The notes under the pieces: model-generated
What the model was told of the DNA's origin: nothing
Databases searched by the model: none
Seen by the model: only the letters and a program-made list of their open reading frames with translations
Made by a program: the position numbers and the translations under genes
Shown here: positions 7,009 to 21,588 of the stretch, piece by piece
How the letters are laid out: each line of letters begins with the position of its first letter
How positions within the stretch are numbered: the first letter of the stretch is position 1
Origin: a virus
Lineage: Duplodnaviria > Caudoviricetes
DNA length: 38,254 nucleotides
Virus record (IMG/VR): IMGVR_UViG_3300027828_000060
Location: 1-38,254 of that record
Reading direction: 5' to 3' (one strand)

Positions 7009-8025
7009 TTAGAGTAATCCTTTTTCCCTGAACTCTTTGACGAGCGGGGAAACTGGCGTATTCGTTTTACCTAGTGGATTAGACTTATCCATTAAGGTCG
7101 TCAGCTTTCTTAACGCTAACCTGGTGTATATCTTTGTGGTCTCTTCTTTGGTGTGGCCTAGTATCGTCATGATTTCTAGTGTCGATGCACTATCCTCAGC
7201 TAACTCTGAACCAACCAAGTGACGCAATGCGTGGGGGTGCGCCTGGTCTTCTGGAATACCTGCGAGCTCAGCATACTCCTTAATCATTTTCCGGATCCCT
7301 CCAGGAGTCAGCCGGCGAGATTCACCACGATGCTCAAAGCTGGGCGTGTGGTTGTTTTTTAAGTTGATAAATAAAACCTGATCACCACTAGCCAAACACC
7401 TATCACATGACTGCAATTCATCATGGCCCAGGTACGCACGTACAAGAATGGCTGACTCAGCGGGCAAAGGAATCATCCGTTCCTTGCCACCTTTCTCTCT
7501 CAGTCTCACAGCAAGGCGCTCGACACCATCATAGTCAAAAGGAATCAAATCATTTTGGTTTAAGTTCGTAACGCCGTTAATCCTGGCACCGGTTCCTATT
7601 AAAACGGAAATAATGGCGGCGTCTCGCAGCCCTTTGAAAGTTGATATATCAGGCTGCATTAAAAGTTTTTCTGAGTTCTTTAACCCCATAACAATGGGAA
7701 CCTTTGATAGTTTTTTTGGATAAACTATTTTTTCAGATTCATTAGTTTGAACATGATCATTTTCATGCAACCAGGAATAGAAACCTTTTACGGCCGCAAC
7801 AGCTGCCCTCCTGGAGGAAGGAGATGCACCAGCCTCATGCAAGTGAAGGCCAGTAAACTCGATCAGCTCTTCTTTAACAGCAAGCAATAAGCTTTTAGAC
7901 TTGAGAAATTCAGAAAGACGTTCGACATAGTTACGATATTTATCACACGTCGACTTCGCGCAGGCTTCGCTGGCCAGCTTGTAGTCCAACCAACTATCCA
8001 AAAAAACCTTGTCTTGTTTCTGCAA
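7009..8025 (-). CDS. XerC/D-like tyrosine recombinase
   Basis: SAM-like N-domain (STCDKYRNYV, SSRRAAVAAVKGFYSWL) and catalytic motifs GTGARING, REKGGKER, HPHALRH, ILGH, TKIYT. Probable TTG start at 8025 behind GGAGG (track maximum 8046). Confidence 0.92.
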   Translation of the reverse strand: MQKQDKVFLDSWLDYKLASEACAKSTCDKYRNYVERLSEFLKSKSLLLAVKEELIEFTGLHLHEAGASPSSRRAAVAAVKGFYSWLHENDHVQTNESEKIVYPKKLSKVPIVMGLKNSEKLLMQPDISTFKGLRDAAIISVLIGTGARINGVTNLNQNDLIPFDYDGVERLAVRLREKGGKERMIPLPAESAILVRAYLGHDELQSCDRCLASGDQVLFINLKNNHTPSFEHRGESRRLTPGGIRKMIKEYAELAGIPEDQAHPHALRHLVGSELAEDSASTLEIMTILGHTKEETTKIYTRLALRKLTTLMDKSNPLGKTNTPVSPLVKEFREKGLL

Positions 8026-8048
8026 AAAACCTCCCAGGGAAAACAACC

Positions 8049-9066: not shown

Positions 9067-10056
9067 ATGGCTGCGATTCGTAAGCGTGGAAATAAGTATT
9101 ACGCCGAGGTTAGGCGAACAGATTTTTTCCAGGGCAAATCCTTCCCCTCTAAAAAAGCAGCTCAAGACTGGGCCAGGCGTGTCGAAACGCAGCTTGATGA
9201 TGGCCACCTGGTTAAAGGAAAAAGCGGACGTACTTTTGCAGATGTGATAGACAGGTTCACTAAAGAAATTTCCCCAACTCGAGACGGTGCAAAATGGGAA
9301 GAAATCCGCGGCAAATTTTTCAAGAAGTTCAAAATTGCCAATATCCGATTAAATGATCTCACATCCCGTCATTTTGCTGATTATCGTGATGAACGCTTAA
9401 ATAAGGTTAAACCAGCGAGCGTTAGACGCGAACTTAACTTTATGAGCTCTATGCTCAGCACAGCGATGCGAGATTGGGAATGGATTGGTCACAACCCAGT
9501 TGAAAAGATTTCCAAGCCTAAAGCGTCACCGCCTCGAGATAGACGTGTTAGTCAAAGTGAAATCAAACTATTAATGCGAGAATTGAAATATTCGGAAAAT
9601 GGCCAAGTACTGCTAAAGAAACAACAAACCGCTACGCTCTTTTTGTTAGCGATAGAAACTGCCATGCGTTGTAAAGAAATGACCACTTTATCCTGGAGCC
9701 AGATTCACCTGGATAAAAAATACATCCAACTTCTCAAAAGTAAAAATGGCGATCGCAGACAAGTCCCTTTATCCACAAGAGCAATCGAACTAATTAGAAA
9801 GTTTGAAGGCCTTCATCCGGATAACATGTGCACAGTCACTGAAGGAACAGCGAGCTCCATGTTTTACAAAGCTAAAACCAATGCAGAATTGAACGATTTG
9901 AATTTTCATGACAGCAGGCGAGAAGCATGCAGCCGGTTGGCTAAAAAACTGGATGTCATGGACTTGGCAAAAATGAGCGGTCACCGAGATATAAAAACGC
10001 TCCTTAATGTTTACTATAAACCAAGCGCAGGTGATATTGCGGACCTTTTAGGGTGA
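9067..10056 (+). CDS. int: Phage integrase (tyrosine recombinase)
   Basis: Arm-binding N-terminus MAAIRKRGNKYYAEVR and catalytic motifs ETAMRCKE, SKNG, FHDSR, SGHRD, NVYY. Adjacent to attP. Confidence 0.95.
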   Translation: MAAIRKRGNKYYAEVRRTDFFQGKSFPSKKAAQDWARRVETQLDDGHLVKGKSGRTFADVIDRFTKEISPTRDGAKWEEIRGKFFKKFKIANIRLNDLTSRHFADYRDERLNKVKPASVRRELNFMSSMLSTAMRDWEWIGHNPVEKISKPKASPPRDRRVSQSEIKLLMRELKYSENGQVLLKKQQTATLFLLAIETAMRCKEMTTLSWSQIHLDKKYIQLLKSKNGDRRQVPLSTRAIELIRKFEGLHPDNMCTVTEGTASSMFYKAKTNAELNDLNFHDSRREACSRLAKKLDVMDLAKMSGHRDIKTLLNVYYKPSAGDIADLLG

Positions 10057-16966: not shown

Positions 16967-17115
16967 TAGTTCCACTCCCTATATTCCCACCAGTCAGGCG
17001 TATACTTTTTCGCTTTGCAATCGAAGTACTCACCTTTCAGAAACCAACCCGGTATTTTTTTCTTACCCACATAAATCCAGATATGGCTATAGTCTTTAGG
17101 TGTTCTAGCTGGCAT
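16966..17115 (-). CDS. 49-aa Trp-rich mini-protein, paralog 1 (not in the ORF track)
   Basis: MPARTPKDYSHIWIYVGKKKIPGWFLKGEYFDCKAKKYTPDWWEYREWN. Fills the gap exactly and overlaps both neighbours. Confidence 0.7.
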   Translation of the reverse strand: MPARTPKDYSHIWIYVGKKKIPGWFLKGEYFDCKAKKYTPDWWEYREWN

Positions 17116-17716
17116 TAATCATCATCTCCTTGATGGACTCTTTATCGGGTTTGGTGTAAATCGCGGTGGTTTTTAAATCGCTATGGCCAAGTAGCTGCTG
17201 AACGGCCAGCAGCGCTTTGGCACTATCGCCATTTTTTGCCAGCAATCTTTTGGCAAAGGTATGTCGTAGCCAATGTATGGAGCCCCGGGGCAATCCGCTT
17301 TCTTTAATCCAGAATTCAAAGCGTTTTTGAAAAGCGCGTATGGTTAGTGCGCAATGTTTTCGACTGATTATCAGTGGCCGATCGTATTCGTCCAGGTCGC
17401 TTTCAAGGTTCGCTTTTCGGTGCAACTTGAGTAGTGTTTTTAAATGGCGGCGCGCTTCTTTAACCAGAAAAATAGATTGTGCTTTTTCGCGTTTATTCCA
17501 CTGCCCAATTTGCAGATAACCGCTATCGAGTGCAGTAACGGCATCACCAACGGTTAACTTAGAGAGTGGCTGTATGCGAATGCCGGTTAAACGGATCAAT
17601 CGAATCCAGGCCAGGTCGCGTTCGGCAATTTCGCCTTTAACGCGTTTTATTGCTCGCAAAAGTTGGCGTTCTTCAGCTTCCGTAAAATATTTATCAAACG
17701 TCTCCATACGATTCAC
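17105..17716 (-). CDS. Small tyrosine recombinase, catalytic domain only
   Basis: 203 aa. RDLAW...LTGIRI, NKREK, SIHWLRHTFA, VQQLLGH, TTAIYT; no N-terminal SAM or arm domain. Confidence 0.9.
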   Translation of the reverse strand: MNRMETFDKYFTEAEERQLLRAIKRVKGEIAERDLAWIRLIRLTGIRIQPLSKLTVGDAVTALDSGYLQIGQWNKREKAQSIFLVKEARRHLKTLLKLHRKANLESDLDEYDRPLIISRKHCALTIRAFQKRFEFWIKESGLPRGSIHWLRHTFAKRLLAKNGDSAKALLAVQQLLGHSDLKTTAIYTKPDKESIKEMMINAS

Positions 17717-18118: not shown

Positions 18119-18619
18119 TCACTTCACCAGGAGCCCTTCGACTCGCTGCATAAATGCATGAAATGCGGCAATGGTTTCCATCCCTTCTCGCATGATGTAG
18201 GCGTACTCTTTATGCGTTACCTGAGAGTCTTCAAAGGCTTTTAATACCGCTTTAGCTACATCACCGTTTTCTTTTTGCCAGGTCGCATACGCGGTTAACA
18301 CTTCAATATCACTACACCCTTCAAATTTACGGTTTGGAATTAAGGTGTAACCGGTGATTTGTGCAATCGCGATTAACAGAGCGGGATTTTCGGTGATCTT
18401 CATCAGCCGAACGGCATCAATTAAGCCAAGCTTATGAGAGGGCGCGTCGGATTTAACTTCGTGATTTAACGAGCTGGGACGTTTGTGGATTTGTGGCGCT
18501 AAAACTTCAGCACCGCCTTTGTGACTATGGACCAAACCATAGATACTGATATCTAAGGAATTCAGTTCATAGTCTGTTAAAACATCCGAATTAATTTTGG
18601 AACAAGCCGACTGTGCCAT
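18119..18619 (-). CDS. Phage regulatory CII (186 CP76-like) family protein
   Basis: YGLVHSHKGGAEVLA...SLNHEV...HKLGLIDAVRLMKITENPALL; second gene of the early operon. Confidence 0.8.
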   Translation of the reverse strand: MAQSACSKINSDVLTDYELNSLDISIYGLVHSHKGGAEVLAPQIHKRPSSLNHEVKSDAPSHKLGLIDAVRLMKITENPALLIAIAQITGYTLIPNRKFEGCSDIEVLTAYATWQKENGDVAKAVLKAFEDSQVTHKEYAYIMREGMETIAAFHAFMQRVEGLLVK

Positions 18620-18773: not shown

Positions 18774-18980
18774 CTAAGAGGCAGCCTGCAGCTGAACTTT
18801 TACCAAGCCACCTTCACGCAAAACATAGCCTTCTTGAATCGCGGCTAACCCTAATTCCATTATCAAAGCTGACTGAGTTGGGACCGTTCGCTTTTCCTGT
18901 TCGGCAATTGCTTCGATCTTCTGCCGTTGCTTTTGCCCGAGTGGTACTTGTACCCTTTTAATTTCTGAACTGTCGCCCAT
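18774..18980 (-). CDS. Ribbon-helix-helix (Arc-like) regulator in the cro position
   Basis: KRVQVPLGQKQRQKIEAIAEQEKRTVPTQSALIMELGL fits the RHH pattern. AAGGAG RBS; divergent from the repressor. Confidence 0.65.
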   Translation of the reverse strand: MGDSSEIKRVQVPLGQKQRQKIEAIAEQEKRTVPTQSALIMELGLAAIQEGYVLREGGLVKVQLQAAS

Positions 18981-19147
18981 GTAAACGCTCCTTTGGTCGC
19001 TATATCAGATTACTGTGTCGAGATTCACGAGAAAAAACGCGAAAATCTGATATAATTTAAGTCAAATTAACTAAAAACCTCACATTACTGACCTAATGTG
19101 ATTCAAAGCCGATAATAGATCACAATACTGATCAAAACAAGGGTTCT
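18981..19147. promoter_or_regulatory. Divergent lysis/lysogeny control region with operator-like repeats
   Basis: TCAGATTACTG (19005), TCACATTACTG (19080), TCACAATACTG (19120). Palindrome CACATTA-N6-TAATGTG at 19081-19100, and inverted TATATCAGATT / AATCTGATATA at 19001 / 19044. Confidence 0.7.
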
Positions 19148-19924
19148 TTGATGAATAGTTCACTATCGAAAACACTGCTTACTATATTGGATGATAGAAA
19201 GCGCACCGAATGGGCACTTGGTTTAGGAATACCAAAGGCAACAAACTCAAACATGTTTAACAAAGGGATCTACCCTTCCGATAAACATTTACGCCGAATC
19301 ATGCTGGCCGAAAACGCGTCGATGAGCGCATTGTGGGGAGCCTCTTCAGCGCCGTTTATGATTCATCGCACAAGCTCTGCGCATGAAACTTATGCGACGT
19401 TAGAGGCACATCTGGATGATCACAACTGGGACATTCACGTAATAACTGGTGATGAATTCCCGGTATTCGTTTTATCCACTTTAGCCATGCAAGAAATCGA
19501 TAACCAGGAATTTAAATATACCCACATAGAAGTTATCTGCGGCCCCGTAGACCATACTGTGGCCAATCTATTCCGGAATAAATCCGTTAAACATAAACAA
19601 CTACCCGAAAACGAAGCGCATTTATTAGCTACCGGATATAAGGGAACTTACTTTCTATTTGGCAAAGAAACTTTGTTGGATGCTAAAGAGATTGATCAGG
19701 TGGAGGTCAACCGAATTTGCCGTGAACCGTCCGAACGCAATGCTGCACTCTTAAAAAGAGTGATGGAAATACTGGATGAAACAGTTATTCAGGAAGGAAT
19801 TGAAGTCAACGCACAAGAGCGCCGCAAGCTCGTCAGTGAGTTATACACTTACGCAATAGAAGAAGGATTGCTTTCGGAAGATGTAAGCCCAAACCTCGCC
19901 CATTCAATGCTGCGAGTCATTTAA
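19148..19924 (+). CDS. Putative immunity repressor (N-terminal HTH, no S24 peptidase domain)
   Basis: RKRTEWALGLGIPKATNSNMF...PSDKHLRRIMLAENASMSALWG...PF resembles a CI-type HTH. Divergent from the early operon. Confidence 0.7.
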   Translation: MMNSSLSKTLLTILDDRKRTEWALGLGIPKATNSNMFNKGIYPSDKHLRRIMLAENASMSALWGASSAPFMIHRTSSAHETYATLEAHLDDHNWDIHVITGDEFPVFVLSTLAMQEIDNQEFKYTHIEVICGPVDHTVANLFRNKSVKHKQLPENEAHLLATGYKGTYFLFGKETLLDAKEIDQVEVNRICREPSERNAALLKRVMEILDETVIQEGIEVNAQERRKLVSELYTYAIEEGLLSEDVSPNLAHSMLRVI

Positions 19925-19930
19925 ACTAAC

Positions 19931-20410
19931 TTATTTGGGATGGGTTGTTTCTTTTATTTCTCGTAAGTTTTTAATTAGGCTCAGCTCTTCTTTTACATCA
20001 CTCTGAAATTCACCTACTTTTTCCAAAAACTCCTGGTGCATTTTATGATAAACATCGGCTTTTAACTGCCACTGAGCCTTTCGGCGAAGACGTTCAATAT
20101 TATCTTCAATATCATTAATTCGAGCCAATTCAGCCTGTAAACGGACTGAGTCGGTGCGGAGCTTTTCAATATACTCATTCCGGGCGTTCAGTTCTTGGCC
20201 GTTGGCTACTACCTCTAAAACAGGTTTTGTCTGCGCTTTTTCATAAGACAAATTTCTAACAATGACTTTATAGCCCACTATGCCAAGCGGGACCATTAGC
20301 CCTATTCCCAAACTGATTAAAATCGCTATATTTGACTTAACTGCGATCGCGATACTGGTGGCTGTTAAACCGACCAATACCCATGCTAACCATTTTTTCA
20401 CTAAACGCAT
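19931..20410 (-). CDS. Two-TM protein with C-terminal coiled-coil
   Basis: Two hydrophobic segments in the first 50 aa, then about 100 aa of charged heptad-like helix. Overlaps the upstream gene by 74 nt. Confidence 0.7.
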   Translation of the reverse strand: MRLVKKWLAWVLVGLTATSIAIAVKSNIAILISLGIGLMVPLGIVGYKVIVRNLSYEKAQTKPVLEVVANGQELNARNEYIEKLRTDSVRLQAELARINDIEDNIERLRRKAQWQLKADVYHKMHQEFLEKVGEFQSDVKEELSLIKNLREIKETTHPK

Positions 20411-20930
20411 CCTTTAGAGCTTTAAGCCCTGAAAATCCTGGTACAACTAAAGCGATTACTGCCACGCTGAGCATTAACCGACAAATATCATCATAGTACT
20501 GTGATGTGGCCCTACCATACCCAGCTAACGCTGAGCCCAGCTGGCCTATATCCACAACAATTAAAACAATGGCGACACCAGTAACAACTGATTCCTGGCG
20601 TAATTCTTCTGTTTTTAACCCTTGCGGGACTATTCTCATTTTTATTGCGAAATAGGCGGTAGTTTGATCAAGATAATTAATAAATAGGATCATTGACCCT
20701 TGTAGTACAACCCAGTAAGGAAACCAGAGATATCTGGCAATTGGGGCATTGTAGAAATCTTCATAGTAGCTGAAGCTTATCCCCCAAATCAGAATGACAT
20801 ATCCAATTAAAACTCTACGTCTTAGATTACCGACACAAAGGAAAAAGCCTGCAATCATTACAAAAACGCACAGCCCAACCCAAGTCTGGTGGCCGTGCGA
20901 TTTTATGGCTTCAAGTAATGATTCAATCAA
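20337..20930 (-). CDS. Polytopic (about 5 TM) inner-membrane protein
   Basis: 197 aa, TTG start behind AAGGGA, five hydrophobic stretches. Confidence 0.75.
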   Translation of the reverse strand: MIESLLEAIKSHGHQTWVGLCVFVMIAGFFLCVGNLRRRVLIGYVILIWGISFSYYEDFYNAPIARYLWFPYWVVLQGSMILFINYLDQTTAYFAIKMRIVPQGLKTEELRQESVVTGVAIVLIVVDIGQLGSALAGYGRATSQYYDDICRLMLSVAVIALVVPGFSGLKALKDAFSEKMVSMGIGRFNSHQYRDRS

Positions 20931-20943
20931 ATTCCCTTAATCC

Positions 20944-21102
20944 TTATCCATCTGTCTGGTCGCAAATGCCGGCTGGGCATCCACCACCACCACTTTGCGG
21001 TTGTACTACAGGTGCCGTTTTCTGTTCTTCTGTGTTGAGTTGGTCAACAGCTTCAGCACCACCAAATAGCAAAATCAAATACAAGTATACTTTCTTCAAC
21101 AT
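20944..21102 (-). CDS. 52-aa secreted peptide precursor (not in the ORF track)
   Basis: MLKKVYLYLILLFGGAEA-VDQLNTEEQKTAPVVQPQSGGGGCPAGICDQTDG. GGAG RBS, signal peptide ending in AEA, and stop 13 nt before the next gene. Confidence 0.8.
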   Translation of the reverse strand: MLKKVYLYLILLFGGAEAVDQLNTEEQKTAPVVQPQSGGGGCPAGICDQTDG

Positions 21103-21339
21103 ATCTCGCTCCGTTATATTAACAATGGTTTTTAAAAAACGCTATGCACTCCAGGCACAAAGCGTGAGGTTTTATGTAAATTTATTTATTTTTATCTCGA
21201 TAAAGCGATTTAAAATTACGCAGTCAGGTAATTTTGGCTAATAAATCTTTGAAAAGCAGGCACAAATCGAGACAAACAGAGTATCAATTTTTGTGCCCTC
21301 GTGGGTATTCTTGATTCGCATAACGTTAATTTACTGGCA

Positions 21340-21588
21340 TTATGTTTTCTGTTCAGCTTCCCGAATGACCACATCACCCTTGGCCAAGGCAATCATTAAT
21401 TGCATGCCATATTGGTATAGCTTCGCGTTCCGACCATCATCACCGGCCAGCAGCGAAGGTCTGTTAACGGGTTGATCCATAATCTGGATAATATTATTGG
21501 CCAGCTGGGCGTTTTGCTGGTCAATCTGTTTTTGCTCTTCAGGTGAAGGTGCCGTTTTGTTTGTTTTAGCTTTCGGTTTTCTAGCCAT
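21340..21588 (-). CDS. Small hypothetical protein at the end of the tail operon
   Basis: 82 aa, GAGGA RBS. Confidence 0.6.
   Translation of the reverse strand: MARKPKAKTNKTAPSPEEQKQIDQQNAQLANNIIQIMDQPVNRPSLLAGDDGRNAKLYQYGMQLMIALAKGDVVIREAEQKT

Follow-up and report, generated by a model that had tools for sequence, protein, structure and literature searches.

The locus studied here raises the question of whether a temperate phage of a Gram-negative host carries a peptide-signalling system beside its repressor gene. The phage record, a temperate phage of 38,254 bases with an estimated completeness of 89%, was analyzed over its whole length, and is referred to below as the window. A sequence-only reading had proposed that three adjacent genes, for a small secreted peptide, a protein of about five transmembrane helices (5-TM) and a two-helix coiled-coil protein, form a ligand, membrane receptor and transducer module that lets the phage or its lysogens communicate and tune lysis-lysogeny. 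The features to which the analysis refers are as follows.

18119-18619, minus strand: CII-like gene (PHROGs and Pfam scans)
18774-18980, minus strand: RHH gene, in a Cro-like position (PHROGs and Pfam scans)
19148-19924, plus strand: likely phage repressor, with an N-terminal HTH, an alpha/beta middle and a helical C-terminal domain, converging on the cassette
19931-20401, minus strand: gene 3, about 156 aa, two membrane helices followed by a predicted cytoplasmic coiled coil, candidate relay (hydropathy, ribosome site)
20337-20930, minus strand: predicted five-helix inner-membrane protein of 197 aa, start TTG, candidate receptor (hydropathy, model, alignment)
20944-21102, minus strand: 52-aa peptide precursor, with a hydrophobic N-terminus, a variable spacer and a conserved Gly-rich two-Cys C-terminus
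20959-20991, minus strand: conserved core GGGGCPAGICD of the peptide, predicted disulfide loop and candidate ligand (orthologue alignment)
21049-21102, minus strand: predicted Sec signal peptide, residues 1-18, with cleavage after AEA judged from pattern and hydropathy only
21134-21165, minus strand: hairpin with a U-run, some 30 nt upstream of the peptide start codon, which may be a terminator/attenuator or stabilise the 5' end

The phage and its regulator

Scans with PHROGs and Pfam revealed a temperate gene set in the window, comprising integrases, a primase, the CII-like and RHH genes, and tail genes. The phage is a marine temperate phage, and its host group is Aliikangiella and kin, as follows from the 5-TM loci that could be read in the Aliikangiella maris chromosome and in genome G003; the family of this group we take to be Kangiellaceae. 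Three tyrosine-recombinase genes are present in this single 38-kb record (window 7009-8046, 9067-10056 and 17105-17716), one of which, in the early operon, encodes a catalytic-domain-only form of 203 aa that is present in genomes G014 and G393 too. No tRNA or tRNA-like att site was found within the window.

The gene that converges on the cassette is likely the repressor, because it is divergent from the RHH and CII genes. Its Pfam match to Phage_CI_repr was below the cut-off (E 0.056). In a fold search with the protein model, residues 1-70 formed an HTH that aligned with phage repressors (Z about 5) and residues 69-187 were TT1805-like (Z 9.2, rmsd 3.0, 104 aligned), while the model ended in three helices; Foldseek with the same model returned no match. 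An S24 autocleavage/peptidase domain was not seen by Pfam, in the model or in the fold search, and without an autocleaving domain the regulator would need another input. It belongs to an unnamed family with an exchangeable C-terminal domain, which differs in G393 and G255, and in one member, P0011, the protein begins with an additional, fused HTH. A perfect 11-bp inverted repeat between the regulator and RHH genes (window 19001-19054) is a candidate operator pair; no conspicuous operator motif was shared by the cassette leader and the immunity region.

Layout and conservation of the cassette

The three ORFs lay where the sequence-only reading had placed them, all on the minus strand, with 13 nt between the peptide and 5-TM genes and 6 nt between the end of the cassette and the regulator stop. 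Homology searches provided five readable 5-TM loci from four lineages: the window, L004 (98% identity), L005 (54%), L002 on the A. maris chromosome (49%), and L007 in G003 (∼30%), where the regulator is a protein listed under Aliikangiella marina. The peptide, 5-TM and 2-TM/coiled-coil genes co-occurred in the same order in all five, down to ∼30% identity, and the three genes are by these comparisons a conserved unit.

The longest ORF of gene 3 spans 19931-20410 (159 aa), but GTG at 20401, which yields 156 aa, is most likely the start: all 5/5 loci keep a ribosome site of the A(A)GGA type 7-8 nt upstream of it, with which the ATG at 20410 would overlap. In all four lineages this start and its ribosome site are nested within the 5-TM gene, an arrangement that explains conserved residues in the 5-TM tail and is as expected for partners.

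Two statements about the composition and leader of the cassette stood only in part. The operon had been called AT-rich, and its GC content is indeed below that of the window, but only mildly so (41.3% vs 45.1%). It had also been assigned its own upstream region of 240 bp; a gap of 237 bp is there, but no minus-strand sigma-70-like site was found in it. The leader hairpin, which directly precedes the ribosome site of the peptide, occupies the same place in L004, L005 (303-330) and L002 (9746-9780), with sequences that differ across the three lineages, and was not seen in L007. Individually these hairpins are weak (z -0.5, -0.8 and -2.2), and the differences seen in L004 affect the loop, the U-run and a single pair that remains compatible. 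Upstream of the cassette, an 82-aa gene (window 21340-21588) is nearly identical in L005, where the cassette is only 38-54% identical.

The peptide gene is under purifying selection

The 52-aa ORF, for which a good ribosome-binding site had been claimed, has GGAG 8 nt before its ATG. It is a real gene under purifying selection: over 52 codons, it differs from its counterpart in L004 by 8 synonymous changes and 1 non-synonymous change (dN/dS 0.03). A variant contig from run X2 had 8 listed differences in this gene, 7 of them at third positions; it is probably the same variant as L004 and hence lends no independent support. The proposal depended on conservation of this ORF, and orthologues were recognisable in L005, L002 and L007.

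Alignment of the five rows gave the pattern GGxCPxG(x)xC[DK], in which G, G, C, P, G and C are invariant (5/5). The N-terminus contains a hydrophobic stretch of 11 residues by hydropathy, which ends in LFG in all four lineages. Of the mature part as first described, an acidic spacer followed by a two-Cys loop, the loop is conserved but the acidic character is not, since the spacer drifts among the orthologues. L007 is the single lineage with a longer Cys loop.

A protein search with the peptide matched nothing but the peptide itself. When the Cys motif was used as a DNA pattern, viral contigs gave one match, which was off-frame, and 5 of the 61 family genomes matched, 2 truly and 3 without a peptide gene. 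Short hydrophobic ORFs made up 10 of 95, one of them with the Cys motif, but this count is not a genuine control, the motif having been selected after the fact. Processing of a double-glycine leader was considered and dropped, as the peptide is without such a leader pattern.

The five-helix protein has a conserved predicted outer face

Hydropathy supported the description of the two larger products, with five membrane segments in the 5-TM protein and two in gene 3, whose coiled coil we place in the cytoplasm by prediction. AlphaFold predicted the 5-TM protein (pLDDT 75) as an all-helical bundle with five long helices. Lys and Arg residues numbered 3, 1, 4 and 1 in the successive loops and 6 in the tail, and the sequence suggests an N-out/C-in topology in which loops 57-67 and 132-148 would be periplasmic.

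Conservation was computed over 8 rows, with L004 and the fragment P0017 left out. Mean pair identity was 0.61 and 0.50 in the predicted outer loops and 0.58 in helix 1, compared with 0.27 in the long inner loop and 0.29 in the tail. The short inner loop 35-39 was the most conserved stretch (0.69), and conservation is thus found inside also. The overall pattern fits a protein that binds something outside. Together with the conserved gene unit and the conserved Cys loop, this predicted outer face partly supports the idea of a ligand, receptor and transducer.

Two cysteines in helix 1, Cys21 and Cys32, are invariant in 8/8 rows, and Cys21 lies near the predicted outer end of the helix. These residues raise another explanation, in which the CP-x-G-x-C segment of the peptide exchanges disulfides with the helix 1 cysteines, making the peptide a tethered or thiol-linked subunit of a sensor for periplasmic redox state or envelope stress, and not a signal that diffuses. 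In keeping with this, a positive charge at the N-terminus is absent from two of the four precursors, and LFG is kept in all of them, which would not be needed in a disposable signal. However, the hydrophobic stretch, at ∼11 residues, is short for an anchor, the Cys spacing of the peptide is not CxxC, and no thiol-exchange fold was matched. We consider a thiol-linked subunit very improbable.

None of the three cassette proteins had a match above cut-off in PHROGs, Pfam, NCBIfam or PADLOC (models dated 2023). For the 5-TM protein, the PHROG 1248 match had E 0.0048, Foldseek with the model gave no match at E 0.001, and the fold search returned generic helical bundles only (best Z 9.2). The best feature scores from the ESM Atlas, 0.87 and 0.80, are leads only. 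The coiled coil of gene 3 is not homologous to the C-terminal domain of the regulator.

The 5-TM family is rare

The word-indexed search found 4 relatives of the 5-TM protein, and a profile search of 1.84 billion proteins found 5 representatives, all with E < 1e-30 and with no tail of weaker matches. Five further 5-TM proteins (P0003, P0004, P0015, P0016 and P0017) lie outside the five readable loci, P0015 and P0016 among them having changed outer loops; for P0003, an equal longest contig size (45,146) suggests a link to the regulator P0010. The family is rare, with about ten proteins known. No 5-TM gene was detected in 300 further genomes of the order, scans of viral contigs with the 5-TM protein found nothing, and GenBank phages gave no 5-TM match.

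The A. maris copy is placed between the end of an island and feoAB. The island (L002:1-8700, left of the cassette) looks mobile and holds, by sequence appearance, a gene resembling a polymerase, a pair of the metallopeptidase/XRE type and a cluster of lipase-like genes; it ends in a repeat resembling a tRNA 3' end, and the cassette lies just beyond this repeat. Searches of the A. maris draft genome detected no regulator, no regulator C-terminal domain and no relative of the phage primase over its full length.

This copy brings in the possibility that the cassette is a host-directed peptide-receptor module that phages carry as cargo, A. maris having the self-sufficient form. Such a role would account for an intact cassette in which the invariant residues are kept, with a 1.1-kb AT-rich upstream region and a composition that is host-like (GC3 0.32-0.33, vs 0.26-0.30 in the neighbours and 0.38 in the phage). 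Against it, the 5-TM gene occurs in only 2 of the 61 family genomes, one of them beside a regulator (a third match was weak and contained a stop), and two relatives with the same feoA gene have no cassette there, which argues that this is no core host system and that the A. maris copy may be a prophage leftover. We regard a host-directed module as improbable.

The cassette is an optional neighbour of the regulator

Eight regulator loci were read, with the weak matches G032 and G641 left out. The proposal that the three genes co-occur beside repressors was borne out by half of them: the full cassette accompanies the regulator in 4/8 (window, L004, L005 and L007), but the other 4/8 (G014, G393, G395 and G255) are without the peptide and 5-TM genes, the last three being distant and having no cassette gene, and the A. 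maris cassette is without a regulator. When viral contigs were scanned with the regulator, only the G003-type locus was recovered, and GenBank phages gave only chance matches to terminases. In G003 itself, cassette and regulator are found together in a differently built element.

G014, a genome of the same family as the Aliikangiella hosts, has a regulator 55% identical and a prophage primase 71% identical to those of the window. It keeps a coiled-coil gene of 106 aa (L013:2253-2573; E 8.6e-12) from which both membrane helices are deleted in frame, leaving the ribosome site, the GTG and a frame of 106 codons, while the peptide and 5-TM genes are gone and the slot is filled by a 120-aa lipoprotein with an HExxH motif. 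The coiled-coil gene is tail-to-tail with every readable close-clade regulator (5/5: window, L004, L005, L007 and L013). In L004, one gene is inserted between the two; this insert (L004:1929-2999) encodes a 356-aa membrane and pentapeptide-repeat protein, whose best match, below threshold, is HalA of the Hailong defence system. The constant adjacency is the best hint that the coiled coil could be the part that talks to the regulator. Other readings of these loci are that the G014 coiled coil may be a dead gene in decay, and that the site may be a slot for swapped accessory genes, such as the pentapeptide gene of L004 and the lipoprotein gene of G014, the adjacency then being positional.

The occurrence of regulators without the cassette, and of a cassette without the regulator, indicates that the peptide and 5-TM genes are a dispensable addition. 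The tie of the cassette to lysis-lysogeny is therefore weaker than was proposed, and no more than plausible.

An accessory slot between tail genes and immunity region, with other passengers in relatives, would also suit superinfection exclusion or anti-phage defence in the lysogen, in which the membrane proteins would block DNA entry or kill the cell, and the periplasmic peptide would serve as guard, plug or subunit, the trigger being its loss or its displacement when another phage enters. That cassette and regulator are optional in both directions, and that the A. maris copy lies just past the repeat of a mobile-looking island, are in line with such a role, and temperate phages often encode exclusion proteins of the inner membrane, for example SieA (PMC10461980). 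However, no PADLOC model matched the 5-TM protein or the peptide, and the coiled coil had two weak matches only (E 0.011 and 0.018). SieA needs no partner, a three-part set with an exported peptide is atypical, and the soluble coiled coil kept in G014 would be left unexplained. We consider exclusion or defence unlikely, if by no means negligible.

A proposed peptide sensor acting within one cell

We tentatively favor the reading that the cassette is an optional set of periplasmic peptide, membrane receptor and coiled-coil relay that modulates the adjacent regulator. The genes, their order, selection, conservation pattern and dispensability are observed, and from them we infer the export, the disulfide, the topology, every binding step and the target. 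The peptide would reach the periplasm by export, form its disulfide there and bind to the five-helix protein at the conserved outer face; this protein would then control its two-helix partner, and the cytoplasmic coiled coil may bind or release the neighboring regulator, as an optional input. In its simplest form this would be a signal within the cell, since the mature peptide of 34 residues should stay in the periplasm, its mass being well over the roughly 600 Da that porins let through. The level of the peptide could then report time since infection, phage copy number or leakage of the outer membrane. Signalling between cells would need further trimming of the peptide or its release by lysis, and a signal within one cell is more likely than one between cells.

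In the between-phage alternative, a disulfide-closed peptide from infected or lysed cells would be read by the five-helix receptor, the membrane-anchored coiled coil would act as antirepressor on a non-cleavable repressor, and G014, with its relay free in the cytoplasm, would represent a mutant blind to the signal. The sequence-only reading had expected a variable peptide C-terminus that co-varies with the 5-TM protein. The C-terminal Cys loop is the conserved part, and three lineages (window, L005 and L002) share an almost unchanged first outer loop with three different peptide cores, which leaves little sign of arbitrium-like dialects. L007 alone has both a longer peptide loop and a changed first outer loop, one case that is confounded by its overall divergence, and the trees were too poorly resolved to bear on co-divergence. 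With no evident route for a 34-aa peptide across the outer membrane, and with regulator and cassette each found alone, the claim that the cassette is the lysis-lysogeny or communication system of the phage is not upheld, and we judge phage-to-phage communication distinctly unlikely.

Comparison with known systems

The logic proposed here is closest to that of SdpC-SdpI-SdpR of Bacillus subtilis, in which an exported peptide is bound outside by a multi-helix membrane protein, and the repressor is controlled from the membrane (PMC2910880). Both have an exported peptide (predicted here), a multi-helix membrane protein and a convergently placed repressor. Unlike the Sdp system, the cassette is phage-borne, belongs to a Gram-negative host and has an additional 2-TM coiled-coil protein; the regulator is a three-domain HTH protein, not ArsR-like, and there is no sign of a toxic peptide. 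No SdpI homology of the 5-TM protein was detected in Pfam (E up to 1) or NCBIfam (to E 0.1, five family members).

Arbitrium (AimP-AimR) of Bacillus phages pairs a secreted peptide with a cytoplasmic receptor (PMC11945551), and the AimX antirepressor acts on AimC (10.1101/2025.11.23.689978), a precedent for the relay logic. The cassette resembles arbitrium in having a small signal-peptide gene (predicted here) with a conserved C-terminal part beside a phage repressor, and a small helical protein that, like AimX, could act on the repressor. It differs in that the candidate receptor is a membrane protein, the peptide has a Cys loop and is not short and linear, and a close relative does without the module. 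As had been stated earlier, a TPR/AimR receptor was not found among the 13 + 35 window proteins scanned with Pfam or the 38 scanned with PHROGs, in a record ∼89% complete.

Prophage inner-membrane exclusion or moron genes also include lambda RexAB. Similar to P22 SieA (PMC10461980), the cassette comprises genes for membrane proteins that a phage may or may not carry, next to its repressor gene or where the tail genes end. Unlike SieA and RexAB, with which it has no sequence match, it has an obligate gene for an exported peptide (predicted) and a coiled-coil partner.

Taken together, these results describe a three-gene envelope module that is real, selected, previously undescribed, rare and dispensable, and that is most likely a peptide sensor. 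Literature searches, which covered mostly titles and abstracts of papers outside subscription journals, found no description of such a cassette, nor of phages with Gram-negative hosts that use a membrane receptor for peptide signalling. The novelty is in the parts and their arrangement, since all three proteins lack a match to any known family or fold; the function is inferred. Rarity (about ten 5-TM proteins known) and dispensability limit its weight. The set is small, its natural variants are full, relay-only and regulator-less, and one copy is in a cultured species, which makes the idea testable. Peptide control of phage dormancy has been described for Bacillus phages with cytoplasmic receptors, and a Gram-negative route through a membrane receptor would widen that, if true. 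The within-cell version, in which the phage reads its own periplasmic peptide, would, if true, be a new input to lysogeny.
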